A stretch of DNA of 64,000 nucleotides, from IMG/VR virus record IMGVR_UViG_3300022902_000004, positions 190,268 to 254,267 of that record, one strand, 5' to 3'. The stretch comes from a virus. The notes under the pieces are model-generated. The model was not told the origin of the DNA. It made no database searches and was given only the letters and a program-made list of their open reading frames with translations. Shown piece after piece: positions 1,630 through 56,490 of this stretch; position 1 is the first letter of the stretch; every line of letters starts with the position of its first letter. A program made the translations under genes and the position numbers.

Positions 1630-1645
1630 AAATCACCATGTCCAA

Positions 1646-35154: not shown

Positions 35155-35656
35155 TCGCCTCCTTCATCCACTCCCCCATCCAATTATAATGAGGAGATGA
35201 AATGATGTTGTCAGACATAACGACAGGCTCTCGCGAATAAACAGCACCTGCGTTTGTAATGTCATCTTCAAGACTGTAATAGCCAGAAATATCTCTTCCC
35301 TTTACAACCTTCGCGGATATTAATAATTGCGCGCCATGACATGTACTAGCGATTATTTTTCCGGCAGCATCCCATTCATGAACAAATCTAAGTATTTTTT
35401 TATCTTGTCGTAATTTTTCCAACGCCTTAACACCGCCTGGCAAAATTAAAAAATCATATTTATTAAAAATCTCGTCATACCTCACTGACAAGTCAGACAC
35501 GTTTAGGTCTGCATTCATTTTCGTGCCCATAATGCCAAAAATCACTTCCTTGTTTGCCATAATTGAAACGTTTGGCGTTTCTTCTCGGCACCTATAATAA
35601 GGATAAATTACTTCGTGATCCTGGTATCCTTCCCATGTAATAATCAATGCTTTCAT
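35123..35656 (-). CDS. DJ-1/PfpI-family protein
   Basis: Collinear with Pyrococcus PfpI: YPYYRCREE, LILPGG, the nucleophile elbow IASTCHGAQLLISA, then KGR and ITNAG. Confidence 0.75.
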   Translation of the reverse strand: MKALIITWEGYQDHEVIYPYYRCREETPNVSIMANKEVIFGIMGTKMNADLNVSDLSVRYDEIFNKYDFLILPGGVKALEKLRQDKKILRFVHEWDAAGKIIASTCHGAQLLISAKVVKGRDISGYYSLEDDITNAGAVYSREPVVMSDNIISSPHYNWMGEWMKEAIDAYSRKERL

Positions 35657-35658
35657 AT

Positions 35659-37182
35659 TTACTTTTCATCCCCAAGCAGTTTTCGCTTTAGTTTTATTTT
35701 CGATGTTTCTTCTACATCATTTCTTGCTTTTATACCAAATTTTTGTTCAAGTAATTCCAGATATGGTTTATGTTTGTGATATTTCATCCAAGCTTTATCA
35801 CGAAAATCCAAAATTTCAGATGCCGTCAAATTGTCAGTCGCCAAATTTAATGTATTATATGAATGTTGGCTATAGCCATCATATGAGTTAGGCAAGCATA
35901 GTTCATTCTTTTTTGCGTCCATGTAAAGAGGGCTTCCAGGATATGCCATGGCAGAATATACGTTTACCATCTCTGTGAGATTTTCCATGGCAAAGTCCAA
36001 GGTTTCTTGCATCGATTCAGCAGTATCCATTGGCAGTCCAAAAATATAATTTGCGCCAATATTGATTCCGGCGTTGCGCATGTCAGTCATGACATCATTG
36101 ATTCTTACTTCCTTAAAGCTATCTTTATGCACATATTTTCGCAAAACCGTATTTGGATTTTCAATTCCCAAGCCCAGCCAATTTATACCGGCACGTTTTA
36201 ATTTGTCAAGATATTTCGGTTTGCATGTGTCTATTCGCGAATATGCCCAAATATTAAACTTATAACCACGTGAAATGATAAGATCGCAGATTGCTTCAAA
36301 GTGTCGTGGGTTTAAAACAAATAGTTCATCTGCGATCTTAACGTTCTTAACGCCCATTTTAGCAAAATAATCGAATTGCTCAATAATAAAATTAGGATCC
36401 CAATATCTAAACTTATTGCTGTCAGCGCTAGTAATGCCGGCACGATTGTCTGTCCTGTTAATAATATTAATCATACAAAATGAACATCGGTACGGACAGC
36501 CCAATGATGTATATAGTGCGGCGAAGGGTGTTTTGTCAGAATCATTTGACCATGAGTGCCATCCTGCAGTTCTATATTTAGAAAAATCAGGTAGTAGATC
36601 CCATGCCATACCAGGCAAATCTGTTTCCATTAATGCTTGTGGAACAATTCTGGACGCACGATTTATAACAATATTATTCTCGACATTACGAAAGCCAAGA
36701 CCTGACACTTTCTCTAGCTGTTTTTCATCCTTTAGGTTTGTTACAGCCAATAAATCGCGGATTGCATATACACCCTCATTTAAACAGATTGCATTAATGG
36801 CAGGCTCGTCAATGAGGCTTTTCGTAGGCAGCGCGGCTACATGGCCCCCTACAAATAAAATGAACGAATTCGGATCTTCGTTTCTTAAGCTAGCAGCCAC
36901 AGCTGTGGCTGCTGACATATTCTGTGAAGATGCACTAGGTTGCTGGCCGTAAACAACAAAACAAACAATCCTGGAATTATATTCGATAATCTGTGCAACT
37001 GTCTCTTTATCAGTCAATTGGTTTACTTCAGCATCCAAAATTGCTGGTGAAAAACCAACTGATCGGACAGAGTTTGCTAAAAGAGCAGCCCATATCGGGG
37101 GTTCAATTGCAGAATGTCGCGAACTTAAATCTTGATATACTATCTTCGAAGAATTTGTATGTACAAATAAAATATCAATCAC
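35659..37182 (-). CDS. Cobalamin-binding radical SAM enzyme (class B)
   Basis: N-terminal B12-binding-like domain followed by a GCPYRCSFC CxxxCxxC radical-SAM cluster motif. 507 aa. Confidence 0.75.
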   Translation of the reverse strand: MIDILFVHTNSSKIVYQDLSSRHSAIEPPIWAALLANSVRSVGFSPAILDAEVNQLTDKETVAQIIEYNSRIVCFVVYGQQPSASSQNMSAATAVAASLRNEDPNSFILFVGGHVAALPTKSLIDEPAINAICLNEGVYAIRDLLAVTNLKDEKQLEKVSGLGFRNVENNIVINRASRIVPQALMETDLPGMAWDLLPDFSKYRTAGWHSWSNDSDKTPFAALYTSLGCPYRCSFCMINIINRTDNRAGITSADSNKFRYWDPNFIIEQFDYFAKMGVKNVKIADELFVLNPRHFEAICDLIISRGYKFNIWAYSRIDTCKPKYLDKLKRAGINWLGLGIENPNTVLRKYVHKDSFKEVRINDVMTDMRNAGINIGANYIFGLPMDTAESMQETLDFAMENLTEMVNVYSAMAYPGSPLYMDAKKNELCLPNSYDGYSQHSYNTLNLATDNLTASEILDFRDKAWMKYHKHKPYLELLEQKFGIKARNDVEETSKIKLKRKLLGDEK

Positions 37183-37919
37183 TGCTTGTCTCCAATTGCT
37201 TGTTTAAGTTTCTCAATTGATGCTTGGCGCTCTGCAACCATTTCGTCAGACCTGAATAGCATTTCATTGTTATCATTTCTTCTGCGCAATTCAGCCAACA
37301 TTGTTGTTTCATCCACAGCGCTCTTCCCTTGCGTCCAATGCATATGTTCTATAACAAGATCTTTTACGAAAATGTTTCTATTCACAGCTTTTGCTAATTC
37401 AAACATCCATGCGTCTGACCAGTCAGCTGTGAAATACGGAGGTGATGCATACCCTAATAACTCTATCCAGTTCCTATGTAAGCCGTAATGTGTTGCAAAG
37501 CCCTCATCATGCACGCCATCGCAACCATAAACTAATGCCAATCGATCATCATATTTTTCAAACGCTTCGTCAATTAATAAATCCCATCCTTTAGTTCTCA
37601 TAATTGTGTCATCACCAAATTGCATCATAACATCAACGTCAGAATTATTGAAAAGAACATTATATGTGTCAGAAAGTGGCCTTACATCATGCTTGTCAAT
37701 AAATAGGTGAATTGGAATCGATGATTGGGGACCAACTTTTTTAATGAAATTTATTGTCGCTTCATCGTCATTGTCAATGTATAAATGAAATGAAATGCGT
37801 TCCGGCTTGGCTGCTAATGAAACAACACTATCCATCAATCGAGCCAACATTTTGACACGTTTTCTTGTAGGACAAAAAATCCCAATTTTGAAATTAGTAG
37901 TTGGCATACCATGGCTCAT
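37179..37919 (-). CDS. Hypothetical protein (possible GT-A-like, DxD)
   Basis: 246 aa with YIDNDDE and DxD-like segments. Weak call. Confidence 0.35.
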   Translation of the reverse strand: MSHGMPTTNFKIGIFCPTRKRVKMLARLMDSVVSLAAKPERISFHLYIDNDDEATINFIKKVGPQSSIPIHLFIDKHDVRPLSDTYNVLFNNSDVDVMMQFGDDTIMRTKGWDLLIDEAFEKYDDRLALVYGCDGVHDEGFATHYGLHRNWIELLGYASPPYFTADWSDAWMFELAKAVNRNIFVKDLVIEHMHWTQGKSAVDETTMLAELRRRNDNNEMLFRSDEMVAERQASIEKLKQAIGDKQ

Positions 37920-38871
37920 CTAAAATATCATATGCTGACTGAACCTGTTTGATTCCCGTCTTCAAATCGATCTTGCACTCAAATCCTAAATCGTAGATTT
38001 TCTGGCTGCTGACGATGTAATCACGTTTGTCTGGATCTTTGAAATTCTCATTCACGTAAATCTCGCACGGAATAACTTCGGCAATTTGTTTTGCCAATTC
38101 CATTTTTGTGCAATTTAGGGCATCGTTGCCGACATTGAACACTTGGTCTTTGCATTCAGCCCAGTTATCAACAACGAACCTGAACGCTGCACAAACATCT
38201 TGGATATGCACATAGTTTCGCTTGAATGAGTCCTCATAAAGAACAAGCGCTTTTTCCTTCATTGCCTTCAACGTAAAATTGTTGATAAGCAAATCTGATC
38301 GCATTCTTGGAGAGGGTCCATATACTGTTGCTAGACGAAGTGTTGTGCACCCCGGGGTTGCAATAAAGGCCTTTTCCGCGTCGACCTTCGTCGTGCCGTA
38401 TAACGTAATTGGTGTCATCGGTGACTCTTCAGTACAAACCTCGCCCGCATTGGCGTTTCCGTAACCAGAATTTGTGCATGGGTATACAACAATTTGATTA
38501 GGTTGCTTAATTGATGCAATGAATGTGTTTGCCGTTGCATTAATCTCGACGGCACCTCTTTCGTCATCGCGACATAGCGGAAAGCCGACTAATGCAGCCA
38601 ATGGAACAATGATGTCTGCATCATTAACTAGTTTCGTTAATAATTTAGTGTCGCGGACGTCACCCTTCACAAATTCGAAATTTTTATGTGTTAAGTACGG
38701 AAGAAGACTAGTTTTATCATACATTAATGAGTCGATGACCGTGACCTTATGATCATGCAGGAACCATGGAATCAACGAACTGCCAATGTATCCTGCTCCA
38801 CCTGTAATAAGTACTTTTTTCATTGTTTCCCCCAGCTGATTTCCCAGTCTTTGAAGTCTGCTGCAAGACAA
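37894..38871 (-). CDS. NAD-dependent sugar epimerase (SDR; HldD/GalE-like)
   Basis: MKKVLITGGAGYIGSSL Rossmann motif and YGTTKVDAEK (YxxxK). Confidence 0.7.
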   Translation of the reverse strand: MSCSRLQRLGNQLGETMKKVLITGGAGYIGSSLIPWFLHDHKVTVIDSLMYDKTSLLPYLTHKNFEFVKGDVRDTKLLTKLVNDADIIVPLAALVGFPLCRDDERGAVEINATANTFIASIKQPNQIVVYPCTNSGYGNANAGEVCTEESPMTPITLYGTTKVDAEKAFIATPGCTTLRLATVYGPSPRMRSDLLINNFTLKAMKEKALVLYEDSFKRNYVHIQDVCAAFRFVVDNWAECKDQVFNVGNDALNCTKMELAKQIAEVIPCEIYVNENFKDPDKRDYIVSSQKIYDLGFECKIDLKTGIKQVQSAYDILDEPWYANY

Positions 38872-40913: not shown

Positions 40914-41131
40914 GCTGATGTGTCAATTCTTTCGCCCTCTCTAAGGATCCTGATGTTATGTTTTTTCTCTAAATCTCTCAGTCGTGCATCTTCTTTTCGG
41001 GTTTTTGTGGCTTCTCGTTCATACTTTATATTATAACAAAAACGTTCTAGCTTGCGGAAATCATTTGGGTTCATAGTCGAGATCCATTTTTGTTCTAATA
41101 GGTTGAACTCTTTTTGTTGTGCTTCATCCAT
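40895..41131 (-). CDS. Small hypothetical protein
   Basis: 78-aa ORF bridging two glycosyltransferase genes. Confidence 0.3.
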   Translation of the reverse strand: MDEAQQKEFNLLEQKWISTMNPNDFRKLERFCYNIKYEREATKTRKEDARLRDLEKKHNIRILREGERIDTSAWEGVR

Positions 41132-43076
41132 TATTATTTTCCATTATCTTTGGATGTCCGCACTCAACCGTTATTGACGGCGTCGGCTTTGAGAAGTCTA
41201 CCGGATTATGGAAAACCCATCCTCCCATTTTCTCCTCGAGTTCTTTGGCCAACGAGGTAATCTCTTCGTCAGAAACTTCAGCCCATGGCTTCTGGAAGAA
41301 CATATTGTTCTCCGCCGTGTCTTCCTGTTTGACATTATACAATGATTGCCAATGTGAGCTCCAATAATCACGGTACGTTCGAATTTTCCTTTCCAGGTTT
41401 CGCCATGAGTAATGGTGGACACCAGGCAGCAATTCTGTGCAACGATTGAACCATTCAGCATACGCCGCCAATGCATCAACATTTCCTTGTAAGGCTGCGA
41501 CTCTGGCATTGTGAGCACCTTCATTGTAGAAGCTGGCATGTGGAATCAGTTCGAGCGTGTCTTTATGAATGAAATCGCAACCGTCACTGCCTGGGAGTGA
41601 GTACAAATCTCCTGCTTCATCGGTTTGTCTTAGGTTGCCAGGAATACCGTGTGTGATGTGTGGTAGGTTCCTTGACAAGCGCCATTTCCACGGGTTGACA
41701 TCAATGCGGACCTTTCCTCCACTACCCCAATATTCTGTGACCGGTAATGAAACCAAATCCGTGTAGTTGGGGAAATTTAGAACTGTTTTTCTGATTTTGT
41801 CGTAATCGTTTTCATGGACGATCTCGTCGGCATCTTGTTGCCAACAGAAATCACCTGTGCAGAGACTTCGAGCCCTTGCCTTTTGTTCGCCGTCGAAGAC
41901 TGCAAATCGTGGATGATCCCAATCTAACTTTTTCTGCTTGACAGTAAGTCCGTTGGTGTGCCTTGCCCATGTGGAAAGCTCATGCCACGTATCGTCTGTT
42001 GAGCCGCCGTCTACAACAATTACTTCGTCACAGAAATTGAGCATTGACAGAATAGCCTCACGGAATGGGTAACCCTGACGGAAACAGTCTTTCGTTGTCA
42101 TGTAGCCTGAAATTGTTGGCTTGTAGTTCATTTCGTCTTGGATCTGCTTCCAAAACAAATCGCGGGAGGCGTATAGATATTCTTCGATCTCCAGTATATT
42201 ATCTGTTGCGAACCATTCCTCGTCTCGGTGCTGAACATATTCGTTGAGTACCAACTCGCAGCCCAACAATTTTGCTTCGATGACCATTCTCGGGCATGTA
42301 TCTTTTCCTCGTGGTAGATATACGAACCCCTTTGCCTCTGAAAGTTTGAGGAGTGTTTCGTGGTGAGACAGACCCCAAACTACTTCGTATTCATGCCCTT
42401 GATCGATACACCACTGCTTTGCCTGATCGGCACCCTTCACCCATGAGCCTGAGCCTAACACGATCCATTTTGTTCTGTTTTTGTTCTTGGAACCGTGCCT
42501 GATGAGTTTGAAGTTGACGAACGTTTCATCATCGAAAACTGAGCTCAGCACGCAGTTCTTTTTCTGCGCCAAAAATGGAAACTTACTAAAATAGTGGTTC
42601 TGCTGAGCTTCGCTCATCCACCAAAGTGACTTGGCACCAAAGTAGAATGCTGAAATCATCTTTCCAACTTCAGCTTCATGACAGTTACATTCTTCCTGTT
42701 CAGCAAAAAGATGTTTTTCTGGTGATCTGTATCTGCAATATTTGTAGTCGTATTCTAGGACACTGTATTTCAGGTTTGCGACGATGGTAGGAACCAACCT
42801 GACATCTAGCGCAGCAAAGTTTCCAAAAATCCAGTATTTTGAGGCACCGTCTTTCAGAAGATCAATGTCAACATCTCTCGACAATATTTTCTGAGTCTTC
42901 ATTGGAGCGTTTTTGATTAGAGCCTCAGTTGTCAGCTCAGCTCCGCCTGAGTATGTTTCAACGAACATATCCGCTACAAAGATTACCTCAGTTTCATCAT
43001 TGATTGAGACTGCTTTTTTGTTGTTGCCAAAAGGACTGATCAACTGCATATTAGTTTCCCTAAAGTTAGTATACAC
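41124..43076 (-). CDS. Two-domain glycosyltransferase (N-terminal GT-B-like + C-terminal GT2)
   Basis: 650 aa. The C-terminal half has a GT2 signature (EVIVVDGGSTDDTWHEL…DxD). The N-terminal ~330 aa has a Rossmann-like GT-B character. Confidence 0.6.
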   Translation of the reverse strand: MYTNFRETNMQLISPFGNNKKAVSINDETEVIFVADMFVETYSGGAELTTEALIKNAPMKTQKILSRDVDIDLLKDGASKYWIFGNFAALDVRLVPTIVANLKYSVLEYDYKYCRYRSPEKHLFAEQEECNCHEAEVGKMISAFYFGAKSLWWMSEAQQNHYFSKFPFLAQKKNCVLSSVFDDETFVNFKLIRHGSKNKNRTKWIVLGSGSWVKGADQAKQWCIDQGHEYEVVWGLSHHETLLKLSEAKGFVYLPRGKDTCPRMVIEAKLLGCELVLNEYVQHRDEEWFATDNILEIEEYLYASRDLFWKQIQDEMNYKPTISGYMTTKDCFRQGYPFREAILSMLNFCDEVIVVDGGSTDDTWHELSTWARHTNGLTVKQKKLDWDHPRFAVFDGEQKARARSLCTGDFCWQQDADEIVHENDYDKIRKTVLNFPNYTDLVSLPVTEYWGSGGKVRIDVNPWKWRLSRNLPHITHGIPGNLRQTDEAGDLYSLPGSDGCDFIHKDTLELIPHASFYNEGAHNARVAALQGNVDALAAYAEWFNRCTELLPGVHHYSWRNLERKIRTYRDYWSSHWQSLYNVKQEDTAENNMFFQKPWAEVSDEEITSLAKELEEKMGGWVFHNPVDFSKPTPSITVECGHPKIMENNNG

Positions 43077-46208: not shown

Positions 46209-47522
46209 TCAAAGCAATTGGCTCGCTTCTGATGCGATGGTTGACCTGATACCGACAGGCAGGTGAATATGTGCCGTGTGGAGTGACTCGCGCATCTTTT
46301 TAGCAACAATTGAAAGGCCATTCGTCTCTTTATTGATATACGGAGTATCGATCTGGTCCGTATCACCCATCAAAATAATTTTGCTGCCTTCACCAACACG
46401 AGTGATAACCGTTTTCAGTTCGTGGATTGTGGCATTCTGGGCCTCATCCAAAATGATGAATGCGTTGGTGAATGTTCGGCCACGAATGAATGACATTGGG
46501 GCAACTTCGATCAGTCCATTCGTTTGCAGCATTTCGAACATTTTCTTGTCTTTGAAATGGTTGCGAAGATTGTCGATTGCAGGTGCCATCCATGGAGCCA
46601 TCTTGTCATTCGCATCGCCTGGCAGGAATCCCATTTCTTTTCCAACAGGCTGAATGTTTCTTGTGATCACAATTCTATCAAACTTTCCAGACTGAACCTG
46701 ACTAATTCCTGCAAGAAGACTCATAAATGTTTTTCCTGATCCTGCAAGACCTGACATTGTAACCAACGAGACATTTTCGTCCATGAGAACCTGCATTGCG
46801 AATCGTTGTTCTTTATTTTTTGCAGAAAACCCGCCATTCTCAGCGCCGCCTGTCTTGATATTCAAATCTTGAAGCAAGCTCAATTTTGAAGCCCTAGCAT
46901 CCCAGATACAAAGTGCTGACTGTTTTGATTGACTTCCTTTTGCGACAACAAACGTGTTATGACTCATAACAGCATCGTCAAGAATTGCGCATTTTGAAGC
47001 GTACAACCTATCGATACCATCACCAGGCAGAACAATTCGCTCAACACCATCCCATTTTTCTGGAAGATCAATGTAGTCGCTGTAGTAATCTTCGGCGGTC
47101 AGCTCCAAAGCATCAGCTTTTACGCGCAGGTTTATGTCTTTTGAAACGATTACGACATCCCTGCCATCCGAAACTCTTTTCAACTCAAGAGCCTCCAACA
47201 GGATTTTGTTGTCGTTGTCGTTCACATCCAGTGGAAAGTTTTCAGGTGCTTTGCCGCACATTAATCGAACTGCTACTGTTTGGTCATTACCAACATCAAC
47301 GCCCTCATGAAGTGGCGAGATTTTTCTTAGCTCGTCCAGGCGACGATTGATATGCCGGGCGTTTTCTCCTAGTAGGCCGGGCTTACCTTTGAAGTTATCC
47401 AGTTCATCAAGAACAACCAAAGGAAGGATTACATCACATCCTGGGAAGTTCTCTAGGGCAGCTCCGTCGTACAGCAAAACGCTGGTATCGAGCACTTTTA
47501 TTTTTCGATTTGATTTTTTCAT
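46209..47522 (-). CDS. phoH: PIN-domain/PhoH-like ATPase (PhoH2/YlaK type)
   Basis: N-terminal PIN (KVLDTSVLLYDG…LPLVVLDELD) and a C-terminal PhoH P-loop (GLAGSGKTFMSLLAG). Confidence 0.8.
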   Translation of the reverse strand: MKKSNRKIKVLDTSVLLYDGAALENFPGCDVILPLVVLDELDNFKGKPGLLGENARHINRRLDELRKISPLHEGVDVGNDQTVAVRLMCGKAPENFPLDVNDNDNKILLEALELKRVSDGRDVVIVSKDINLRVKADALELTAEDYYSDYIDLPEKWDGVERIVLPGDGIDRLYASKCAILDDAVMSHNTFVVAKGSQSKQSALCIWDARASKLSLLQDLNIKTGGAENGGFSAKNKEQRFAMQVLMDENVSLVTMSGLAGSGKTFMSLLAGISQVQSGKFDRIVITRNIQPVGKEMGFLPGDANDKMAPWMAPAIDNLRNHFKDKKMFEMLQTNGLIEVAPMSFIRGRTFTNAFIILDEAQNATIHELKTVITRVGEGSKIILMGDTDQIDTPYINKETNGLSIVAKKMRESLHTAHIHLPVGIRSTIASEASQLL

Positions 47523-47800: not shown

Positions 47801-48010
47801 TCAGTTGGACTTTCGGTTTTTGTCCTCAGAGATAGTCAACTTGACTAGCTGCGCAGTTTTGCCCTTTAGCAAGCGAAGGGCACGACGAGCGCGAACTCCT
47901 GCTGCCGAGTTTCCGTTGGCGTTCTTGAGAACGTCGACCTCAGCCTCGTTGATCAGTGCCTTAACTTCGCCCCATGCCTCTAAAATAGTTCCTTCTGTAC
48001 TCTCACTCAT
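47801..48010 (-). CDS. Small basic protein (possible DNA-binding)
   Basis: 69 aa with an R/K-rich segment GVRARRALRLLKGK. Convergent with the sigma-r4 gene. Confidence 0.35.
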   Translation of the reverse strand: MSESTEGTILEAWGEVKALINEAEVDVLKNANGNSAAGVRARRALRLLKGKTAQLVKLTISEDKNRKSN

Positions 48011-48984: not shown

Positions 48985-50142
48985 TTATCTGTTTGATGTG
49001 ATGACTCCACCCATACTTTGTAAAATGTTGTCCATACTGTCTTTGGCTCTGGTGCCAACAATTACTGACGAATGTGGTACGGTGAGCTGACAATCATTCA
49101 CATCAAATTTCGTGATGCCAGACCTCGCCGCGAACCGACCTAATGCCAAGAGCGTTTTTGTTCTGTCGATTGAAATACCTTTCAGGGAACCCAAATCCAT
49201 CCCGAACGAAACTGACATTTTCGATTTTGTATTCTTGACAGCCTGATATGTGATTCGGTCGGTGTCAATGCTCATTTTGATGAGCCTTTGCAGTCGTGCC
49301 TTCCTGATTTCGTTACCCATTGCATAAGAAACGCACTCGAATCCAGACTCGACCAAATCTAAAAAATTCCTGTTGCCCCAGTCCGATATTACAAACGGGA
49401 TGACTTTGAGTTTCCCTGACAGCCAGTTCTCAAGCAATGTATTCGATACATCAGGAAGAAAGCCTCGTGCTGCGATTACGATTCCATTATTCCCAGCGGC
49501 ATCGAGCATTTTGTGAATTTGTGCGACGCTTTCAACAATACCATCGATGGCAACTCCATAAAAGTCGCCGCTCTCGTTGGGCACGTCAGCTCGACTGTTG
49601 AATAGCGGGTCAATACTTCCAAAAATCTCTTCACCGGAGACGACCTTGACAACCGTTCCGAAATGATTTCCTTCGACCAGGCTAACATGGCTTCCGCAGG
49701 CACCCATTTGTATCAGCTTTTTTGCGATGGTTCCTGACATTCCATCTCTTGACCATGATGAGATAATTTCATCAACATCGCCTGCAAGTGCATACGATCC
49801 TTGCCTTTTCTTGCCTTTGACATCATCCAGTGAAATTCTGCCCGTCCACAAGAGGCAGGAGATGAGTCCTGAGCCACCCAGGTTGACCTCTGTTGAATAC
49901 AAACAGCTTAGGATGGTGTTTCTTATTGCCACACTGCTTCGGGACGTCTGGGGCCAACGTGAGAGACACCGGTGGAAGTCCAGCGGAACCGCGGTGCAGA
50001 CCTTCCCATCATAATTCAAGGCAATTTTGCCACCAAAAATATCATCGCAAATCTGCCCCAATTCTTGGCGGGCAATCTCTATCGATTTTTTTATCTCTTT
50101 CTGGTTGATACAAGCGCTAGTGGACTGTCTGTTGTTTCTCAT
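48985..50142 (-). CDS. Divergent chaperonin (GroEL/Cpn60)-like protein, truncated
   Basis: 385 aa. …GNNGIVIAARGFLPDVSNTLLENWLSGKLKVIPFVISDWGNRNFLDLVESGFECVS… follows the GroEL apical/intermediate pattern …[56 protein letters not shown]… (from memory). It lacks the GDGTTT ATP motif and the C-terminal equatorial segment. Confidence 0.35.
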   Translation of the reverse strand: MRNNRQSTSACINQKEIKKSIEIARQELGQICDDIFGGKIALNYDGKVCTAVPLDFHRCLSRWPQTSRSSVAIRNTILSCLYSTEVNLGGSGLISCLLWTGRISLDDVKGKKRQGSYALAGDVDEIISSWSRDGMSGTIAKKLIQMGACGSHVSLVEGNHFGTVVKVVSGEEIFGSIDPLFNSRADVPNESGDFYGVAIDGIVESVAQIHKMLDAAGNNGIVIAARGFLPDVSNTLLENWLSGKLKVIPFVISDWGNRNFLDLVESGFECVSYAMGNEIRKARLQRLIKMSIDTDRITYQAVKNTKSKMSVSFGMDLGSLKGISIDRTKTLLALGRFAARSGITKFDVNDCQLTVPHSSVIVGTRAKDSMDNILQSMGGVITSNR

Positions 50143-50368
50143 GACCTTTTTGATTTTCCAATGAGTTGGCGGCCCGACTGATGCTTGCGACGATGTTATG
50201 AAATCCCAGGATTATGTCATTCTTGACTTTCTTGTCCTCGGCTTCCAATGCGAATCGAACGAACCCGCACAGCGCACCCAAAATTAGCAAGATACATCCT
50301 AGCCACGCTTCATGGGTGTATAAATACGCCCCACAAATTACAAGGACCTCTGACATTTTGCCTTTCAT
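50117..50368 (-). CDS. Small membrane protein
   Basis: 83 aa with one long hydrophobic helix. Confidence 0.35.
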   Translation of the reverse strand: MKGKMSEVLVICGAYLYTHEAWLGCILLILGALCGFVRFALEAEDKKVKNDIILGFHNIVASISRAANSLENQKGHEKQQTVH

Positions 50369-52305
50369 TACGAATCACGCCATAGGTTGTTAGAAGCATA
50401 TGTCAAGATTTCTTCGGCACTGTCTTCGTTGTAACCGTATTCCTTGATCATCACACCAACCATCTCGCCGTATTTCTTCTGCTGGTCCTTGTCGCGTGTC
50501 TTCGACTTCGTCACAATTCTTGAGATGTCACGGACAGAGTTGATAAGGTATGATTCGATAGCTTCCTTCAATGGCTCATAGGCCTTGAAATTCACCTTCT
50601 CACCACGACGCATCTTGGCAAACATGTAAGCCGTCACATCACTTCTGAAACCATCACGAGCACTCCCGGTGATACCGATTTGCTCCTCGATGGACGTCAT
50701 GAATTTCTCATCAGGCTTCCGCTCTTCTTGTGTAATACGGTCACGCATTCGTTGGTGGGTCGTGTAAGCTTCAGCATTGTCAAGATAGCTATCAAACAAT
50801 GCCTGAGCCTGCTCCTCATATGCCGCGATGAATGCCTTTGCAATCTCCGTATCGAGGATTTTCAGGTATTCTTCGCGGACAACCTTCTGGATAAGCTCAA
50901 GGCAAGAGTATTTGAATTCCTCATCAGCAATCTGCTCTTTTACACAAGCTGTCAGCGACTCAATCAGCGAAACCGGTGTAATCATATTCTTGTCACTACG
51001 AACGAGTGCCATGTCGATTGCCTTCGTGATGAACCGTGTGGAAATTCCGCTCATGCCTTCATGACGGGCCTCTTCCTTCAAGTCACGGAGATCAACCTTC
51101 TTGACGCGGCCTTTCTCAACAACCTCTTCACCGTTGTAGATTTTCATCTTGGTAACCGGGTCGCATTTAGCCGAAGCCTTCAGGCGGGACATAACACTGA
51201 ACATCGAGGCAACACGCAATGTATGTGGAGCAATGTGGGCGTCAAAATCAGACAGGCCGAGCATTTTCTCGTAAATCTTTATTTCCTGATTCAATTCGAG
51301 ACAGTATGGAACATCAATCTTTACGACACGGTCGATGATTGCTTCATTCGTATGCTCCGACTGGAATCGATTCCACTCAGCTTCATTACAGTGAGCCAAG
51401 ATAACACCATCGAAATGGAGCATATCGTTCTTGCCCGGCGATGGAATTCGCTTTTCCTGTGTTGCCGTGATGATTGTGTGGAGGAACTCAATTTCATTCT
51501 TGAAAACCTCGACCAACTCAACAATTCCACGGTTACCAACATTGAATGCACCATTCAAAGACAGCGCCCTAGGATCATCCTCAGCGTATTTGTCTAATTT
51601 GGAAATGTCAACTGAGCCGATGAGCACCGATACATCCTGACTGTTGGCATCCATTGGGGGAACTGATGCGATTCCTCGGCGGCCTCGTTGTGAGAACGTC
51701 GTTTCTTCAATTTCGAAGTTTTCATATTCGCCACCGAGTTCCTTGAGAAGCTTATGACGAGCGACTGGGCTGATGTCACCATCGATTTTTACGTTCAGGG
51801 CCTTCTCAAATGTCTCACGCAAGCTACGTGGGATCAACTGGAGTGGTTCGCCGCGGTGTGGGTCATTCTTCAGGTAAAAGTATTTCTCGCCCTCAATTGA
51901 GGCTTTGATGTGCTCAACCAACGCAGACTTGCCGGCACCAACAGGGCCCATAAGCAGAAGTACCTGGCGTGATTCTTCACCACGATGAGCTGCTGAGTGT
52001 AGGAATGCCATCACATTTTCAATGACACGCTCCATCCCGAAAAAATGCGGCTCGAAGTAGTCGTAGACCTTGATTGCGTCACCGTCGAAAATCCTGTTTT
52101 TTCTTGGGTCACTATCAGGCATTTTTTTAACGCCTGGGCCAGAGAGTGCTTCATACAAACGACGTTGTGCCGTCTTGGCAAGATGTGGATTTTCTTCCAA
52201 CAGCTTGATGTAATCTGCGAAAGTTCCTGAAAACTTCTGTACCGCCTTGCTTTTTACACGCTGACTTTTGATCGCTGCCAAAAGACTCTTTACATTTTTG
52301 CTCAT
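50368..52305 (-). CDS. prkA: PrkA-family serine protein kinase (AAA+ N-domain)
   Basis: 645 aa, the size of YeaG/PrkA. Walker A LLLMGPVGAGKSAL. It is the third gene of a yhbH-spoVR-prkA array. Confidence 0.8.
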   Translation of the reverse strand: MSKNVKSLLAAIKSQRVKSKAVQKFSGTFADYIKLLEENPHLAKTAQRRLYEALSGPGVKKMPDSDPRKNRIFDGDAIKVYDYFEPHFFGMERVIENVMAFLHSAAHRGEESRQVLLLMGPVGAGKSALVEHIKASIEGEKYFYLKNDPHRGEPLQLIPRSLRETFEKALNVKIDGDISPVARHKLLKELGGEYENFEIEETTFSQRGRRGIASVPPMDANSQDVSVLIGSVDISKLDKYAEDDPRALSLNGAFNVGNRGIVELVEVFKNEIEFLHTIITATQEKRIPSPGKNDMLHFDGVILAHCNEAEWNRFQSEHTNEAIIDRVVKIDVPYCLELNQEIKIYEKMLGLSDFDAHIAPHTLRVASMFSVMSRLKASAKCDPVTKMKIYNGEEVVEKGRVKKVDLRDLKEEARHEGMSGISTRFITKAIDMALVRSDKNMITPVSLIESLTACVKEQIADEEFKYSCLELIQKVVREEYLKILDTEIAKAFIAAYEEQAQALFDSYLDNAEAYTTHQRMRDRITQEERKPDEKFMTSIEEQIGITGSARDGFRSDVTAYMFAKMRRGEKVNFKAYEPLKEAIESYLINSVRDISRIVTKSKTRDKDQQKKYGEMVGVMIKEYGYNEDSAEEILTYASNNLWRDS

Positions 52306-52363
52306 AAATTCCCCTGTATAATTTTGACTATAACCATGTCTCTTGGTTTATAAACCTATTCGT

Positions 52364-53734
52364 TCAAATATCCCAAGCATCACCCTCGATCATCGTGTGG
52401 AATTCTATGTTATTTCCCCATAATGACTTGACGTGCTGGATTGTTTTGTCGGCATATTCCAGCTCTAGATCTCTTCCGTCATGCTCATGATGTAAAATCA
52501 ACGTGCCGTTATCTTCCAAAAGATCAACCTTAATAACTGGAATTCCGGCCGCACCGATTGAACGACACAATGCCTCTCTGACTTTCTTCCAGCCATCTTT
52601 GTCTGAGATGTCATCAATTGACCAAGCATATTTCTTTTCACTCCAACTGAAGAGTCCAAGATCCATCGCCAGATCATGTGTGAGGTACTGCCTAATGAAA
52701 GAAACATCGTTCAGTGATTCCCTGGCAACGAAACATTCTTCCAAACCAAAACGCTCTTTGATGTCCTGGAAAATCTTGAAACCAAGATGGTAAGGGTTCA
52801 ATCCACCGATATGCGGCCGAATTACTCCGTTGTGTGATTTCAGTATTGGAAGGTGGTACTCTGAATCCAGCTCTAAATCGTGACAGATTGTATAGTGCCA
52901 AAAACTAGCCCAACCCTCATTCATGATTTTCGTTTGAATCTGGGGCATAAAGTAACACGATTCGTCTCGCACAACCTCAATAATGTCACGTTTCCAATCG
53001 GGCATTTTCCCATGCTCAGCGATGAAGCCCAGGACATCAGGATCAGGTTCTAGAGGAATAACATCGATGTCGTAAACAATATAGCACCCATCTTCACCCT
53101 TCTCGGCGAGCGAACGATACCACTCGACCATTTCTTTATGCGACCGTCGCTCAGCTCCGGTTCTGTTGATTTGATACTGTAATGCATGACATGAATCGAT
53201 TACTGCTTCCACACGATCAATACCGATTCTCGGATCCTCAACATATTCCTTGATTCTCTTTTTTGCTGCACGAAATCGTCCGATGACTGAGTCAGCTCGG
53301 GTTGAAGCAAACATTCTGTTGTTTTTGAAGAAGTCGCTATGTCCTACGCAGTGTGCCATAATAAGGATCTGCAAATATAGCGGGTTCTCGCGCATCAGGT
53401 ATGCAATCGATGGGTTTGAGTTGATGATGAGCTCGTATGGAAGACCTGACACTCCTGCATTGTACGATTGGTGTGTTCTCTCAAACGATTTTCCATATGA
53501 CCAATGATCATAATGCGTCGGCATACCATGATATGACATGTGGCCAATCATCGAGTAGTAATCACAGATTTCATAATTGATCGGGTACCAATCTAATCCA
53601 TAACCTTCAGCGATCTTTTTGATTTTCTCGTCCCACATTTGTAGGTCTTCAATTGCCCATGTCATATTATGCTCCCCTGTTTCCAAACATGACCTTGAAC
53701 GCCGGCCATACATCTTCTTTCGATGCAATTTCAA
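52364..53734 (-). CDS. spoVR: SpoVR/YcgB-family protein
   Basis: ~450 aa, sitting between DUF444 and PrkA. The likely start is the ATG near 53665 (MTWAIEDL…), 2 nt after the upstream stop. Confidence 0.65.
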   Translation of the reverse strand: MKLHRKKMYGRRSRSCLETGEHNMTWAIEDLQMWDEKIKKIAEGYGLDWYPINYEICDYYSMIGHMSYHGMPTHYDHWSYGKSFERTHQSYNAGVSGLPYELIINSNPSIAYLMRENPLYLQILIMAHCVGHSDFFKNNRMFASTRADSVIGRFRAAKKRIKEYVEDPRIGIDRVEAVIDSCHALQYQINRTGAERRSHKEMVEWYRSLAEKGEDGCYIVYDIDVIPLEPDPDVLGFIAEHGKMPDWKRDIIEVVRDESCYFMPQIQTKIMNEGWASFWHYTICHDLELDSEYHLPILKSHNGVIRPHIGGLNPYHLGFKIFQDIKERFGLEECFVARESLNDVSFIRQYLTHDLAMDLGLFSWSEKKYAWSIDDISDKDGWKKVREALCRSIGAAGIPVIKVDLLEDNGTLILHHEHDGRDLELEYADKTIQHVKSLWGNNIEFHTMIEGDAWDI

Positions 53735-54836
53735 CGAGCTTCATATTACTTGAAGCGATTGTTGCAAGGTGTTTTGACAACCTGTCATCACTTGCCCATG
53801 ACATCTCATCGTCAGGGGCAATTTCACAGTATCCGAAAAGCTGGCTAACATTTTTTAGCTTCTCGCCGGCGGTGAGCATGTCGTTTGTATCATACCCAAA
53901 ATTGTCGCCATCTGAACAATGGAAAGTGTAGACGTTCCACAACGAAGGATGAAACCTTTTTTCTATGATTTCCATTGCAAGTTGGTATGCGGTTGAGACA
54001 ACTGTTCCGCCGCTGGACCTTCGAGAAAAGAACTGCTCTTCGTTTACCTCACGAGCTTCAGCATCGTGGGCAATGAAAACGATTTCAACAGAGTCATACT
54101 TTGAACGAATAAACTGGTACAACAGGAAGAAAAAGCTCCGTGCAAGGAATTTCTTTTTCTTCGACATCGACCCAGAGACGTCCATCATCATAACGATTAC
54201 GGCGTTGGTGCTCTCTTTGGATTTGTTTTTGTAGTTTCGGTAGACCAAGTCACCGTCATGAAACGATGTGCTCTTCTCTTCTTCATCTTCGCCATCATTT
54301 TTGCGGCGCTCTTGAGCTTTCAACCTTTTGATTCGGTTGATCGCAGACTTTTTCTTGTCTAGGCGAGGAATTATGCCTTGTGGGCGGTAACCAGAACGCT
54401 TGAGACGATCCGATTTGATTTTTACAAGGGCTTTACGTTCCAAATCTGGAAGTTCAAGTTCATCAAATAGGTACTTGGCAAGTTCGTCAAGGGTAATTTC
54501 AACCTCGTAAACATCATCACCGGCCTTATTTCCGGCCTTCTGGCCTTCCCCTTTCTTACCATCCTTTCTTTTGATGATTTGTTTGCGATCAAGATCACGC
54601 CCGGGAGCCGAACCGACTTTTTTGTTTTGCTCGTTTGAGCCATAAACAAAGCGGTACTCCTTGATTCCCTTCACGGGAATGCGGAATTTCTTCTTACCAT
54701 CTTGGCCGATAATAGATTCATCGGCAACAATATCATGAATTCCTTCACGTATTGCTTTTTCAATTTTTTGTTTATGGCGCTTACGATCTGATGCAGACCG
54801 GTCGGCAATCGTCTTGTGATGTGAGAAAACTGACAT
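53667..54836 (-). CDS. yhbH: YhbH/YeaH-family DUF444 protein with vWA-like MIDAS motif
   Basis: 389 aa with a MIDAS-type DVSGSM motif. A -10 TATAAT and a GGAG Shine-Dalgarno sit in the 54837-54885 gap. Confidence 0.75.
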   Translation of the reverse strand: MSVFSHHKTIADRSASDRKRHKQKIEKAIREGIHDIVADESIIGQDGKKKFRIPVKGIKEYRFVYGSNEQNKKVGSAPGRDLDRKQIIKRKDGKKGEGQKAGNKAGDDVYEVEITLDELAKYLFDELELPDLERKALVKIKSDRLKRSGYRPQGIIPRLDKKKSAINRIKRLKAQERRKNDGEDEEEKSTSFHDGDLVYRNYKNKSKESTNAVIVMMMDVSGSMSKKKKFLARSFFFLLYQFIRSKYDSVEIVFIAHDAEAREVNEEQFFSRRSSGGTVVSTAYQLAMEIIEKRFHPSLWNVYTFHCSDGDNFGYDTNDMLTAGEKLKNVSQLFGYCEIAPDDEMSWASDDRLSKHLATIASSNMKLVEIASKEDVWPAFKVMFGNRGA

Positions 54837-54885
54837 ATAATCTCCAGGATATAGGTATCCTAGATCATTATATTACAATCGTCGA

Positions 54886-56490
54886 TTAGAGAAACTCTGG
54901 GCCGAACAATGCCTTGTTTTTGTTGAAAAACCTTTCCCATGAACTGTCTAAAATGTATGTGACAGCGGTGTCAGTTTCGCTTCGAACAGACCGCCCAACC
55001 GACTGAATAATTGTCTTGGCGGTTTGCAGATCATACCACCAATCCCACTTATTCATCTTCTTACGGATGAGTTTATCGCCGAGGAATGGAAAGGGAACCT
55101 TACAAACAATCTGGAACCTACTCAAATCACCCTTCAGGTCAACACCCTCAGTCATTGACGGCGAGAGCAAAATTGTTGGTTTCGTTGACGAGATGTGTTG
55201 CTGAAGAACCTCGTCACGATTTGAACTGTCGTGGATAAGGAATCGTGAGCTCCTGATGTTCCTTTTGATGTACCATGCGATTTTGTACGACCTGCAATGG
55301 ATGATCCCCTTATCATTTTTGTGTTCGTCCATGATGGCTTTCACCGTCTTGACAAGCTTTGGCAACGTTTTGTCAATCTCGCGAGCTGACATTTTACCGG
55401 CACCAGAATAAATGATTGGCCGGTTCTCAATTGGGAACGGGCACGGAATCTTTATAGACCCAGCTTTGCCGGTAATACCGCACAACTGCGAGAACCGGTC
55501 AACATCAACAATGGTTGCTGACATTAGCAACGTGTATTCGCCCAACTTGAACAAGTAATCATGAGCATATGGTGCAATATCGATCGGTTTGAATTCAACC
55601 TTCCGGCTGGTCCTCTCCTCCGCTGGGATTTCTGACATCAGCCAGTTATCCTTATCATACAGTTTCAAAAATGTCTGCACCTTCAGGTCATGACCCGTCA
55701 GGATCTCCAACTGCCGAGATAGTTTCGAGAACTCGCCCGATTCAACCCGTGATTTGAGTGATGTGAATTTCTCCAGACCAATCCTGAAATCAAGGATTTT
55801 CTTTGCCAACACAGGATAGTACTTTTCAGTGATCCATTTGACAAATGCTGCCGGGGTGATGTGTTCTGGGAGCTCGATTCCAACAAACGATTTTGCGAAC
55901 CGGTCAGAGAACGTAACCTCAATGAACCTGCTAAGTTCATCAGGGGTATTGTGAGCTTCGTCGATGACAAGCAATGATGTCCTCGGGATCTTACCAGAGT
56001 ACCGAGTCTCAGTCAGAAAATATGCGAAGTTTGTGACCCCGTAAGGTTCCTTGATGAATTTTTCCTTTGCTTTTTTGTATGTGCAATTGAACATGCAGTT
56101 TTTCCAAAACCGAGTGTTCTTCTCTTCAGTCTTCAATAGCTTTCTAGAATCATTGCAGGACAACTTTTTGTGGTGCCCGCATCCGTAATTCGTCGATGAT
56201 TTCAACGAATTGATGTCGACATAGTCCTTTTCATATTGAGCCTGCAACAGTTTCTGGGTCGTGATGATGTTACTCCCCTGCTTCGTTTCAGGACCGCAGT
56301 TCCCAAAGTGTGCCTTTATATATCGACCCACCGTTACGGCAATGGCGGATTTGCCGACACCTGTACCTGCTTCAAGGACAAAAATCTTTTTGCCCCCTTC
56401 AAATGAGTCTAGAATCGCGTTGATCGCAAGCGTTTGTTCGTCCCGGACTGTTTTGTGTGGGAAGAAGCATTTCCAATCATGGTTAGGCAT
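54886..56490 (-). CDS. Rad3/XPD/DinG-family Fe-S DNA helicase
   Basis: Walker A LEAGTGVGKS, a DEAH box LLVIDEAHN, and four Cys (…YGCGHHKKLSC…CMFNC…) in the Fe-S domain position. Confidence 0.75.
   Translation of the reverse strand: MPNHDWKCFFPHKTVRDEQTLAINAILDSFEGGKKIFVLEAGTGVGKSAIAVTVGRYIKAHFGNCGPETKQGSNIITTQKLLQAQYEKDYVDINSLKSSTNYGCGHHKKLSCNDSRKLLKTEEKNTRFWKNCMFNCTYKKAKEKFIKEPYGVTNFAYFLTETRYSGKIPRTSLLVIDEAHNTPDELSRFIEVTFSDRFAKSFVGIELPEHITPAAFVKWITEKYYPVLAKKILDFRIGLEKFTSLKSRVESGEFSKLSRQLEILTGHDLKVQTFLKLYDKDNWLMSEIPAEERTSRKVEFKPIDIAPYAHDYLFKLGEYTLLMSATIVDVDRFSQLCGITGKAGSIKIPCPFPIENRPIIYSGAGKMSAREIDKTLPKLVKTVKAIMDEHKNDKGIIHCRSYKIAWYIKRNIRSSRFLIHDSSNRDEVLQQHISSTKPTILLSPSMTEGVDLKGDLSRFQIVCKVPFPFLGDKLIRKKMNKWDWWYDLQTAKTIIQSVGRSVRSETDTAVTYILDSSWERFFNKNKALFGPEFL

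Follow-up and report, generated by a model that had tools for sequence, protein, structure and literature searches.

The window, by which we mean the whole 64-kb stretch of DNA that was analysed, carries three adjacent genes on the minus strand which code, head-to-tail, for homologues of YhbH/YeaH (DUF444), SpoVR/YcgB and PrkA/YeaG. The ORF calls confirm the complete trio described in an earlier note on this DNA, with three full-length and co-oriented genes (Table 1). The SpoVR homologue is shorter than the length of about 450 aa given there. Its raw ORF (53734..52364, 456 aa) starts at an upstream TTG within the DUF444 gene, and the start was placed at ATG 53665, which gives 433 aa; independent calls on other contigs gave the same 433-aa protein (P0121, 100% identical). 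Since this ATG lies 1 nt past the DUF444 stop codon (TAA, 53669-53667), the translation of DUF444 and SpoVR is probably coupled. The hydrophobic ORF that follows prkA is doubtful: it was called by one pipeline, is absent from the calls of another on identical sequence and gave no tblastn match across related loci.

Table 1. Features of the trio locus, in window coordinates
Feature	Coordinates	Strand	Remarks
yhbH/yeaH homologue (DUF444, vWA-type MIDAS)	53667..54836	-	389 aa; first gene of the trio
spoVR/ycgB homologue	52364..53665	-	433 aa; middle gene of the trio
prkA/yeaG homologue (AAA+ ATPase and PrkA C-terminal domain)	50368..52305	-	645 aa; third gene of the trio
SpoVR-PrkA spacer	52306..52363	-	58 nt; weak promoter-like TTTATA-16-TATAGT and GGGG ribosome site
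Doubtful hydrophobic ORF	50117..50368	-	83 aa; ATG overlaps the PrkA stop (TAATG)
orf385, short chaperonin-fold protein	48985..50142	-	385 aa; downstream of prkA
Inverted repeat/RNA hairpin in the helicase-DUF444 gap	54835..54873	-	RNA fold

Hairpin upstream of the first gene

On the minus strand, the gap between the helicase and DUF444 genes (54837-54885) reads TAA tcgacgattgtaaTATAATgatcTAGGATAcctaTATCCTGGAGattatATG. The trio had been credited in the earlier note with its own promoter-like TATAAT in this gap, together with a hairpin. TATAAT (54872-54867), the AGGATA-CCTA-TATCCT stem and GGAG are all present, and the hairpin stands; a promoter is not supported. All three elements belong to one extended hairpin, which also includes the first two bases of the ATG. 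Within this predicted structure, TATAAT forms part of the 5′ arm and is paired with the ATTATAT that enters the start codon; the inner stem holds GGAG. The RNA fold of 54885..54825 has a minimum free energy of -20.5 kcal/mol (z = -4.05), and 0/200 shuffles were equally stable. A scan for sigma-70-like sites between 48 and 58 kb remained at chance level, with 18 sites against 14.6 +/- 3.5 in shuffles, and the TATAAT box was not among the sites listed. The promoter-like element of the SpoVR-PrkA spacer reaches 9/12 matches in this chance-level scan, and no conserved element is evident in the same spacer of the relatives.

Because the hairpin is predicted to bury both the ribosome-binding site and the start codon of the first gene, it suggests that translation of the trio may be gated at this point. 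Hairpins of different sequence which bury the Shine-Dalgarno site were found in the relatives L022 (z -3.95) and L071 (z -1.5); such a structure is absent upstream in L004, L005, L021 and L029, and it is present in three of the seven related regions that were folded.

Protein families and motifs

The profile searches proposed in the earlier note were run, and all three proteins match their Pfam families far beyond chance, with the profiles covered over their full length. PrkA matches AAA_PrkA (PF08298, E=5.8e-135, profile positions 2-357 of 358) and the C-terminal PrkA domain (PF06798, E=4.7e-77, positions 1-255 of 255), SpoVR matches SpoVR (PF04293, E=6.3e-124) and SpoVR_C (PF24755, E=9.6e-10), and the DUF444 protein matches PF04285 (E=2.2e-106) as well as phrog_19072 (E=1.3e-84). 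Further matches of PrkA are a solved relative named 'Serine protein kinase' (PDB 9xip/9xiq/9xir, E=6e-92) and, weakly, the Pfam families bpMoxR and AAA_5 (E about 8e-4). In the PADLOC defence models the trio was not matched beyond a weak DolB hit at the PrkA N-terminus (E=1.7e-5), with zero matches for SpoVR or DUF444.

The conserved residues of the three families are in place. PrkA has a Walker A motif at residues 120-127 (GPVGAGKS, with G120, K126 and S127), the lysine of which is invariant in a 7-sequence alignment and at least 95% conserved in 88 sequences; E263/E266 are conserved across the family. The corresponding lysine of Bacillus subtilis PrkA (K108) is required for ATP binding and function (PMC9512850). 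The MIDAS of the DUF444 protein (D219-x-S221-x-S223, T278, D309/D311) is intact, its residues being at least 95% conserved in 83 family members, and the invariant SpoVR residues H54, E78, H105, H109, E250 and NPY290-292 are all present. SpoVR proteins share the motif A-H-[V/C/A]-x-G-H and, downstream of it, N-E-G-W-A with an invariant Glu. SpoVR was not assigned to the zincin peptidases, since an HExxH motif with its catalytic Glu after the first His is missing in 79/79 sequences.

Judged by its score against the enterobacterial YeaG equivalog (NCBIfam NF011999, 390.9 bits, cut-off 576), PrkA is a member of the family from a subfamily other than that of enterobacterial YeaG. The DUF444 protein comes nearest to the NCBIfam model spore_yhbH (388.6 bits, equivalog cut-off 467.95), and SpoVR reaches 296.7 against the 679 of the YcgB equivalog. 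The designation of PrkA as an AAA+ Ser kinase in the earlier note is a contested label: the protein was reported as a protease in one study (PMC9512850), and in another it showed negligible protease and kinase activity and was placed in AAA+ clade III (PMC13001217).

The product of orf385 is a divergent short or mini chaperonin-fold protein, which was recognized as such in a test for membership of the fold. It has no Pfam hit at E<=1, its distant relatives likewise lack Pfam hits, and neither Cpn60_TCP1 nor any chain in the PDB was matched at the level of sequence. With 385 aa and no Pfam match, it was rejected as a three-domain subunit of about 545 aa of the Cpn60_TCP1 family; the GroEL-like chaperonins of jumbo phages (phage EL gp146, OBP gp246), in contrast, have this length of about 545 aa.

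Genome context and origin of the trio

The window is DNA of a tailed phage (Caudoviricetes, myovirus-like and jumbo): it carries genes for baseplate proteins, a DinG-like helicase and PIN-PhoH, and its relatives include viral contigs of over 200 kb. The baseplate wedge genes belong to phrog_219 and phrog_261 and gave tblastn matches to Flavobacterium and Microcystis phages (E=4e-65 to 9e-75), the helicase matches phrog_2488 (E=7e-101), and a ClpP-like protein matches PHROG families of head maturation proteases. Nearly every ORF of the window lies on one strand. Capsid and terminase genes were not found within the 64-kb window, and neither were tRNAs. An identical SpoVR protein is present on a 318-kb contig, and an identical gene content on a 184-kb contig. 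In IMG/VR we found 194 relatives on contigs of up to 361 kb. Relatives come from Tara Oceans, other marine metagenomes and many further metagenome samples; no cultured relative of this phage was found.

The earlier note had named a bacterial chromosomal segment as the finding that would overturn its phage reading. Such a segment, or a chimeric assembly, has practically no probability left and is for practical purposes already refuted. It is true that members of the clade were deposited in bacterial MAGs, for example on a 305-kb contig of 'Methylococcaceae bacterium TMED69', and that clade proteins carry the labels Porticoccaceae or Halobacteriovorax. However, the TMED69 contig has the phage gene order and phage synteny (helicase, orf153, PhoH), and the MAGs with these three labels are cases of mis-binning. 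Moreover, the baseplate and other phage genes and the single-strand layout speak for a phage, none of the ORFs scanned belongs to a bacterial housekeeping family, and the same gene string was assembled independently in several samples and occurs on 80 IMG/VR contigs.

As the earlier note had remarked, the gene order differs from that of bacteria. In the phage clade, 78/78 related IMG/VR loci have the order DUF444->SpoVR->PrkA, whereas all 55 co-oriented bacterial loci have PrkA->DUF444->SpoVR and none of them has the phage order. The gaps between the phage genes are short, mostly -8..+9 nt between DUF444 and SpoVR and mostly 4-67 nt between SpoVR and PrkA. The trio also occurs in a second genomic context without the helicase, orf385 and PhoH neighbours. 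Of the genes in this neighbourhood, PrkA is conserved best, with a median identity of 71% across 80 related loci against 52% for the helicase and 47% for PhoH, and lies above both in 30/30 loci, a relative conservation that is inflated by the retrieval of these loci through PrkA similarity.

The phylogenetic comparison suggested in the earlier note turned out in favour of a phage clade and not of a recent capture. In trees built by NJ on corrected distances, not by maximum likelihood, the phage clade is monophyletic for each of the three proteins (200/200 bootstraps). For PrkA it groups with bacteria of a Clostridia/'delta' type in 180/200 bootstraps; in the NJ tree, the bacteria that are sister to the phage PrkA proteins are Gram-negative and do not sporulate. 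The same grouping was obtained in 5/200 bootstraps for SpoVR and 10/200 for DUF444, with the exact sister unresolved for both. The nearest relatives of all three proteins belong to the same bacterial subfamily (Clostridia/Negativicutes and 'delta'/Binatia/Bdellovibrionales types), at identities to the nearest bacterial loci of 50-58% for PrkA, 40-47% for DUF444 and 37-48% for SpoVR.

Because all three proteins are monophyletic, share a nearest bacterial subfamily and kept their order in every phage-clade locus, the comparison points to one old en-bloc capture, then a rearrangement and then strong conservation. In an ancestor phage, a single event would have brought in all three genes from a bacterium whose operon was of the nearest-subfamily type; prkA would afterwards have shifted from the first to the last position, and from then on the trio may have descended vertically, with strong purifying selection acting on it. 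That the genes are recent arrivals, carried as passengers without use to the phage, is an extremely unlikely explanation, which we regard as already largely refuted. Other phage lineages do seem to have acquired the module independently: RsoM2USA and megaphages of ~600 kb retain the bacterial order, and the SpoVR of RsoM2USA was reported to be 56% identical to a Vibrio protein. In the clade of the window, however, each of the three proteins is monophyletic, bacterial PrkA is distant even at its nearest and PrkA is better conserved than helicase and PhoH; despite deep divergence within the clade, with PrkA distances of up to 0.53, none of the members retrieved is missing a trio gene.

Proposed role and known systems

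In six bacteria, yeaG, yeaH and ycgB have a co-fitness of r>0.7; they mostly make up a single operon, and the bacterial phenotypes of the module differ between species (bioRxiv 10.1101/072470). On the basis of this tight co-fitness, we propose that the three proteins act as one machine. PrkA would be its ATP-driven AAA+ motor, DUF444 a MIDAS/vWA adaptor gripping a protein client and SpoVR a metal-binding partner, possibly with a zincin-like fold. Given the two biochemical reports on PrkA (PMC9512850, PMC13001217), an ATP-dependent remodelling or processing of target proteins would be a likelier output than classical Ser/Thr kinase signalling. By analogy to the bacterial genetics (bioRxiv 10.1101/072470), a manipulation of host starvation physiology is plausible: with a copy made during infection, the phage and not the host would set the adaptation to starvation and stationary phase that the module provides, and such control could enable a large, slowly replicating phage to complete its cycle in nutrient-poor water. 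Taken as a whole, a predicted functional PrkA-YhbH-SpoVR copy in a jumbo-myophage lineage, gained by one capture and working as a joint machine that sets the host starvation response, is our best explanation, to which we give slightly better than even chances.

A possible but clearly less probable role is that of a proteostasis or assembly machine, in which the PrkA motor, the DUF444 adaptor, a putative zincin-fold SpoVR and the mini-chaperonin process the virion or replication proteins of the phage itself and the host is not re-programmed. Pairs of an AAA+ and a vWA protein generally serve in protein remodelling, and the trio of the Thermus phages sits between portal/minor-head genes and terminase. 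In 46/73 loci, prkA is immediately followed by the chaperonin-fold gene, but the linkage of this gene to the trio is a trait of one phage sub-lineage, and the gene is missing from an entire sub-lineage that retains the trio. In the window, a gene for a ClpP-like protein is found two genes upstream; among the 78 loci, just 15 have one in their flanks. The bacterial module, furthermore, has regulatory and physiological phenotypes which are unconnected with viruses.

Control of sporulation, by which the phage would drive, delay or hijack the sporulation of an endospore-forming host via yhbH/spoVR/prkA, is very unlikely. Endospore formers are expected to be rare in samples such as the marine and other metagenomes from which the relatives come. 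The labels of the mis-binned MAGs and the non-sporulating sister group of PrkA do not favour such a host either, and the family is found widely, and functions, in bacteria that do not form spores. Clostridia are nevertheless among the nearest bacterial relatives, and among NCBIfam models the DUF444 protein fits spore_yhbH best, although its score is under the equivalog cut-off. In addition, viral spoVR has been classed as a sporulation AMG (PMC8940887), and Bacillus prkA and spoVR mutants are sporulation-defective (PMC9512850, PMC13001217).

Going beyond the preferred reading of a joint machine that sets the starvation response, we can only tentatively, and with low confidence, suggest that YeaG/YeaH/YcgB is a three-part ATP-dependent protein-processing machine with no kinase cascade. 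SpoVR would do the work as a zincin-derived, metal-dependent subunit, with DUF444 as the MIDAS adaptor and PrkA as the AAA+ motor, and in this phage lineage the machine would be teamed with a mini-chaperonin not recognised before. Over a long infection, the phage would use it on specific host or phage proteins, which would be remodelled or destroyed.

PrkA/YeaG, YhbH/YeaH and SpoVR/YcgB are among the most widespread bacterial three-gene systems with an unsettled biochemistry, for which kinase, protease and neither activity have been reported. In a lineage of uncultured aquatic jumbo phages that is very large and has a global distribution, the complete module is retained, and its genes are the best conserved of their neighbourhood. 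As a consequence, the three proteins would be sufficient as a unit, with no need of bacterial neighbours, and thousands of divergent natural sequences become usable for co-variation and structure work. Counts of viral 'spoVR' in marine viromes should be read as members of the module and not as sporulation genes. The trio provides a concrete, testable case of a phage that may carry a starvation-linked host system into infection.

Compared with the bacterial prkA-yhbH-spoVR operon (E. coli yeaG-yeaH and ycgB; B. subtilis prkA-yhbH, spoVR), the trio has the same three Pfam families, architecture and lengths, shares the Walker A, MIDAS and SpoVR invariant residues and is, as in most bacteria, contiguous and co-oriented. 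It differs in being virus-borne and circularly permuted, with prkA in the last and not the first place, in its identity (~32% to E. coli; in the nearest bacterial subfamily 50-58% for PrkA and 37-48% for the other two), and in that all three proteins score under the NCBIfam equivalog cut-offs. In MoxR-type AAA+/vWA pairs (RavA-ViaA, CbbQ-CbbO), an AAA+ ATPase is likewise encoded beside a MIDAS-containing vWA protein; unlike in these, there is a C-terminal domain particular to PrkA, and SpoVR comes in as a third obligate partner.

Among phages, the Thermus phages phiYS40, TMA, phiLo and Lalka8, with thermophile hosts and genomes of 70-180 kb, carry the trio in the same permuted order as the window, with the GenBank labels 'conserved bacterial protein / SpoVR / serine kinase'. 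Their PrkA is about 31% identical to that of the window, and these phages never group with its clade (0/200 bootstraps), which argues for an independent origin, and phiYS40 differs further by an extra 617-aa ORF between SpoVR and PrkA. In the Ralstonia jumbo phage RsoM2USA and the ~600-kb megaphages (LR745206, LR756502, LR756504, LR756511), PrkA adjoins DUF444 and the order is, unlike in the window, PrkA->DUF444->SpoVR, at 29-34% identity to the window PrkA. SpoVR was detected in RsoM2USA, LR745206, LR756504 and LR756511 and not at the LR756502 locus. In the alignment, RsoM2USA PrkA goes with the YeaG type of E. coli, whose insertions it shares, and PrkA and SpoVR are noted in the paper on this phage (PMC8504454). 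PHROGs hold families for all three trio proteins, and spoVR was the most abundant sporulation-related AMG detected in viromes of marine oxygen-minimum zones (PMC8940887). With phage copies already annotated in phiYS40 and its relatives, RsoM2USA, the megaphages, PHROGs and marine viromes, the novelty is lower than the earlier note had implied: the trio of the window is not a new kind of system, and phages with these genes are already on record.

The three genes and their phage setting

Three consecutive ORFs occupy positions 50368-54885 on the minus strand. Full Pfam matches to DUF444 (yhbH/yeaH), SpoVR (spoVR/ycgB) and PrkA (prkA/yeaG), with E=4.7e-77 or lower for the main domains, confirm the trio that had been proposed in an earlier note from the sequence alone. 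The 645-aa protein covers both the AAA_PrkA and the PrkA C-terminal profile over their whole length. The sizes named at that time hold for PrkA and DUF444 (389 aa); SpoVR comprises 433 aa and not about 450. A mechanical call yields a SpoVR ORF of 456 aa from a TTG overlapping DUF444, which was not taken as the real start. The start is the ATG listed in the table, preceded by a GGAG at a distance of 8 nt, and the resulting protein is called identically by independent pipelines on other contigs. Only 1 nt separates the TAA of DUF444 from the ATG of SpoVR, the spacer between SpoVR and PrkA is 58 nt, and the TAA of PrkA is overlapped by the ATG of an unconserved 83-aa ORF.

Positions of the trio and of further features in the window and in related loci
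Feature	Position	Strand	Remarks
DUF444 gene	54836..53667	minus	389 aa; Pfam DUF444 E=2.2e-106
SpoVR gene	ATG at 53665	minus	433 aa; Pfam SpoVR E=6.3e-124 and SpoVR_C
PrkA gene	52305..50368	minus	645 aa; AAA_PrkA E=5.8e-135; PrkA C-terminal domain E=4.7e-77
DinG-like helicase	54886-56490	minus	directly upstream of the trio; phrog_2488 E=7e-101
PIN domain fused to PhoH	46209-47522	minus	PF13638 and PF02562
69-aa protein	47801-48010	minus	chlamydial histone H1-like Hc1, PF07432 E=9e-8
Late-sigma-like 248-aa ORF	15533-16279	minus	weak match, phrog_234 E=8e-5
58-aa ORF, Sigma70_r4 match	locus L166, 15917-16093	window plus strand	between Hc1-like and PhoH genes
Box 'ACTTATAAT(C)'	8-15 nt upstream of DUF444 ATG		related loci L006-L010, L018, L022, L023, L028

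The functional residues are intact in all three proteins: the Walker A motif GPVGAGKS (K126) in PrkA, the MIDAS residues D219/S221/S223/T278/D309-311 in DUF444, and the family-invariant H54, E78, H105, H109, E250 and NPY290-292 in SpoVR. Since all three score below the NCBIfam equivalog cut-offs, they represent a distinct subfamily. A 692-aa relative of PrkA has a deposited structure (9xip/9xiq/9xir, E=6e-92), for which no describing paper was found in the literature. The Foldseek comparison of the SpoVR model with the PDB gave no match, nor did profile searches of PDB sequences that started from the alignments of SpoVR and orf385 (orf385 being the 385-aa chaperonin-fold gene downstream of prkA). 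The PADLOC defence models detected nothing for the trio; the helicase upstream of it also matches the PADLOC model of the type IV CRISPR-associated DinG (E=2e-60).

The contig is a phage genome, as had been assumed, and not a piece of bacterial chromosome. It encodes baseplate-wedge proteins (phrog_219, phrog_261), for which tblastn finds counterparts in myophages of Flavobacterium and Microcystis (E=4e-65 to 9e-75), besides the helicase and PIN-PhoH, and one strand holds nearly all long ORFs of the window. The Hc1-like protein may be a phage-encoded DNA-compacting protein, and the two ORFs with sigma-factor matches are possible transcription factors. Between ~16500 and 43100 there is a long minus-strand run of back-to-back ORFs of 200-500 aa. 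The three scanned (16573-17745, 17745-18995, 41124-43076) match glycosyltransferases, and GC falls from ~0.45 to 0.37-0.39 in the run, being lowest at 32000-38000; the phage genome may here contain a large island for glycan synthesis or modification. No tRNA genes were found, so none could be used for host inference.

The window belongs to an uncultured jumbo-myophage lineage. Contigs of up to 318 kb encode an identical SpoVR protein, and the gene string of the window was assembled in several samples. At least 194 relatives of PrkA are present in IMG/VR; the best 80 are 64-82% identical and lie on contigs up to 361 kb. When the 4.5-kb region was compared as DNA with 50,697 phage records, no near-identical match emerged, which indicates that there is no cultured close relative; cultured phages match only at the protein level with ~30% identity, all below 35%. 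Relatives come from Tara Oceans, other marine metagenomes and many other environmental samples. One of them, NHDW01000006.1 (305,838 bp), is deposited as 'MAG: Methylococcaceae bacterium TMED69' and belongs to the phage clade; its PrkA is 72% identical, its gene order is that of the phages, and it shows helicase/trio/orf153/PhoH synteny (orf153 being a further downstream neighbour). It probably represents a jumbo-phage genome, close to complete, that was wrongly binned with a bacterial MAG. NCBI lists further proteins of the clade under the names Porticoccaceae and Halobacteriovorax.

Gene order, conservation and descent

The gene order had been described as unusual, and this turned out to be general. 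All 78 related viral loci containing the three genes show DUF444→SpoVR→PrkA, whereas PrkA→DUF444→SpoVR was found in 55/55 bacterial loci with three co-oriented neighbouring genes (one genome per species scanned, 80 loci returned). In the viral loci, the gaps are mostly -8 to +9 nt between DUF444 and SpoVR and mostly 4-67 nt between SpoVR and PrkA. The block occurs in two contexts: with the helicase upstream and orf385, orf153 and PIN-PhoH downstream, or, in the sub-lineage of loci L006-L028 and L033, without these four. PIN-PhoH is kept downstream in most of the clade with 41-65% identity. A ClpP-like protease is encoded in the window as well; it was rejected as a fourth partner, since no more than 15 of the 78 loci have it in their flanks. 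PrkA shows the highest median identity of the neighbourhood (71%; helicase 52%, PhoH 47%, orf385 26%) and exceeds both helicase and PhoH in 30/30 loci, a ranking to be read with the caveat that these loci were retrieved through PrkA. The phage trio is an intact module, inherited within the lineage and maintained by selection.

For all three proteins, the nearest bacterial sequences belong to one shared set of genomes, comprising Clostridia, Negativicutes, Syntrophomonas and 'delta'-type, Binatia, Bdellovibrionales and Udaeobacter MAGs. The identities to this set are 50-58% for PrkA, 40-47% for DUF444 and 37-48% for SpoVR; identity to Bacillus/Paenibacillus types is ~37% and to proteobacterial YeaG types 32-35%. 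In neighbour-joining trees (Kimura-corrected distances, 200 bootstraps), the phylogeny suggested in the earlier note, the phage versions form a clade of their own in 200/200 replicates for each protein. This clade was never grouped with the Thermus phages; for PrkA, it joins the nearest bacterial subfamily in 180/200. The simplest history would be one old en-bloc capture, followed by transposition of prkA to the end and vertical descent.

The region upstream of DUF444

The trio was thought to have its own promoter, and the sequences cited for it, TATAAT, AGGATA-CCTA-TATCCT and GGAG, are all present in the gap between helicase and DUF444 (54837-54885). Rather than separate signals, they are parts of one extended hairpin, which is formed by the 61 nt that precede and enter the DUF444 start codon (-20.5 kcal/mol, z=-4.05); its stability is reached by 0/200 shuffles. 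Within this fold, the partner of TATAAT is ATTATAT, a pairing that takes in the A and U of the ATG, and GGAG forms part of the inner stem. A scan for sigma-70-type sites in the surrounding 10 kb gave 18 sites against 14.6±3.5, which is chance level. As the gap signals form one hairpin and the scan is at chance, the promoter is unsupported. With modest confidence, a translation-gating structure or a protein-binding palindrome would be the better-supported reading. Two of the three closest relatives, L022 (z=-3.95) and L071 (z=-1.5), possess hairpins of different sequence in which the ribosome site is likewise buried; four other relatives have no such hairpin.

The TATAAT-containing box was searched for in the window, both exactly and with 3 mismatches, and its matches remained at chance level. 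Among the upstream regions of distinct relatives, a 'ACTTATAATC'-like or 'ACTTATAAT(C)' box precedes the DUF444 ATG by 8-15 nt in 21/67 (within 2 mismatches), and the same box precedes PrkA in 8/67. The 'GATACCTATATCC' of the window aligns with it, but is degenerate. As a clade-wide promoter, the 'ACTTATAATC'-like box is a weak lead; with 'ACTTATAAT(C)' as a -10 element, the transcript would have almost no leader. Between 47.5 and 57.5 kb, Rfam yielded only a sub-threshold SorY match outside the region.

Function and comparison with other phages

Mutants in yeaG, yeaH and ycgB, usually located in one operon, have near-identical fitness profiles (r>0.7) in six species, with phenotypes concerning nitrogen-source and amino-acid use (bioRxiv 10.1101/072470). 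Sporulation and osmotic-stress survival of Bacillus require prkA. The label 'kinase' given to PrkA is disputed: ATP-dependent proteolysis depending on the Walker A lysine was reported (PMC9512850), and negligible protease and kinase activity was found in another study, which assigns PrkA to AAA+ clade III (PMC13001217). In the best-supported reading, the trio would be a three-protein, ATP-driven remodelling or processing machine with PrkA as AAA+ motor, DUF444 as MIDAS adaptor and SpoVR as metal-binding partner. By expressing it, the phage would itself determine the starvation and stationary-phase adaptation that is under control of this module in bacteria. The joint action of the phage proteins is carried over from bacteria by analogy, and we likewise infer their physiological role and targets.

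The main rival, that the machine serves folding or assembly of the phage's own proteins, appears rather unlikely to us. It is kept because a chaperonin-fold gene lies directly downstream of prkA in 46/73 loci and because the trio of Thermus phages is located among head and packaging genes. Pfam searches with ten distant orf385 relatives revealed no link to Cpn60. The value of the phage trio is that nature has here provided an experiment on a bacterial system which is poorly understood, and it corrects the interpretation of viral spoVR as a 'sporulation AMG'.

The trio, or most of it, is found in at least three further phage lineages. The Thermus phages phiYS40, TMA, phiLo and Lalka8 (three of them compared here as L002, phiYS40; L003, Lalka8; L173, phiLo) share the permuted order with the window, yet their trio is of independent origin. 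In Thermus aquaticus, gene numbering puts prkA two genes before spoVR (PMC4605624). Since the Thermus phages are unrelated to our clade and none of the 55 bacterial loci has this order, both phage lineages have thus reached the prkA-last arrangement convergently. In contrast to the window, the Ralstonia jumbo phage RsoM2USA and four uncultured megaphages of ~600 kb follow the bacterial arrangement; the locus retrieved for megaphage LR756502 yielded no SpoVR match. The YeaG-YeaH pair at 1-3308, the record start of Enterobacter phage LAU1 (MN688132.1, a 30.8-kb 'complete phage genome'), is most likely host chromosome beside a prophage and not part of the phage.

We found no paper analysing the trio in phages, jumbo or marine phages included. 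The mentions found are PrkA and SpoVR in the gene table of RsoM2USA (PMC8504454) and spoVR, reported to rank first in abundance among the sporulation-related AMGs detected in oxygen-minimum-zone viromes (PMC8940887); a survey of 224 jumbo phages mentions none of the three proteins (PMC7824862). PHROGs contains one family for each. Neither of the two conditions named in the earlier note as refuting it, a bacterial chromosomal contig or missing profile matches, came true. The interpretation in that note stands for the trio, its phage context and its order, but not for the promoter, the 'kinase' or the degree of novelty, as phage-borne PrkA/YhbH/SpoVR were already on record in Thermus phages, RsoM2USA, megaphages and PHROGs. 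To this record, the lineage of the window is a very large and well-conserved addition.
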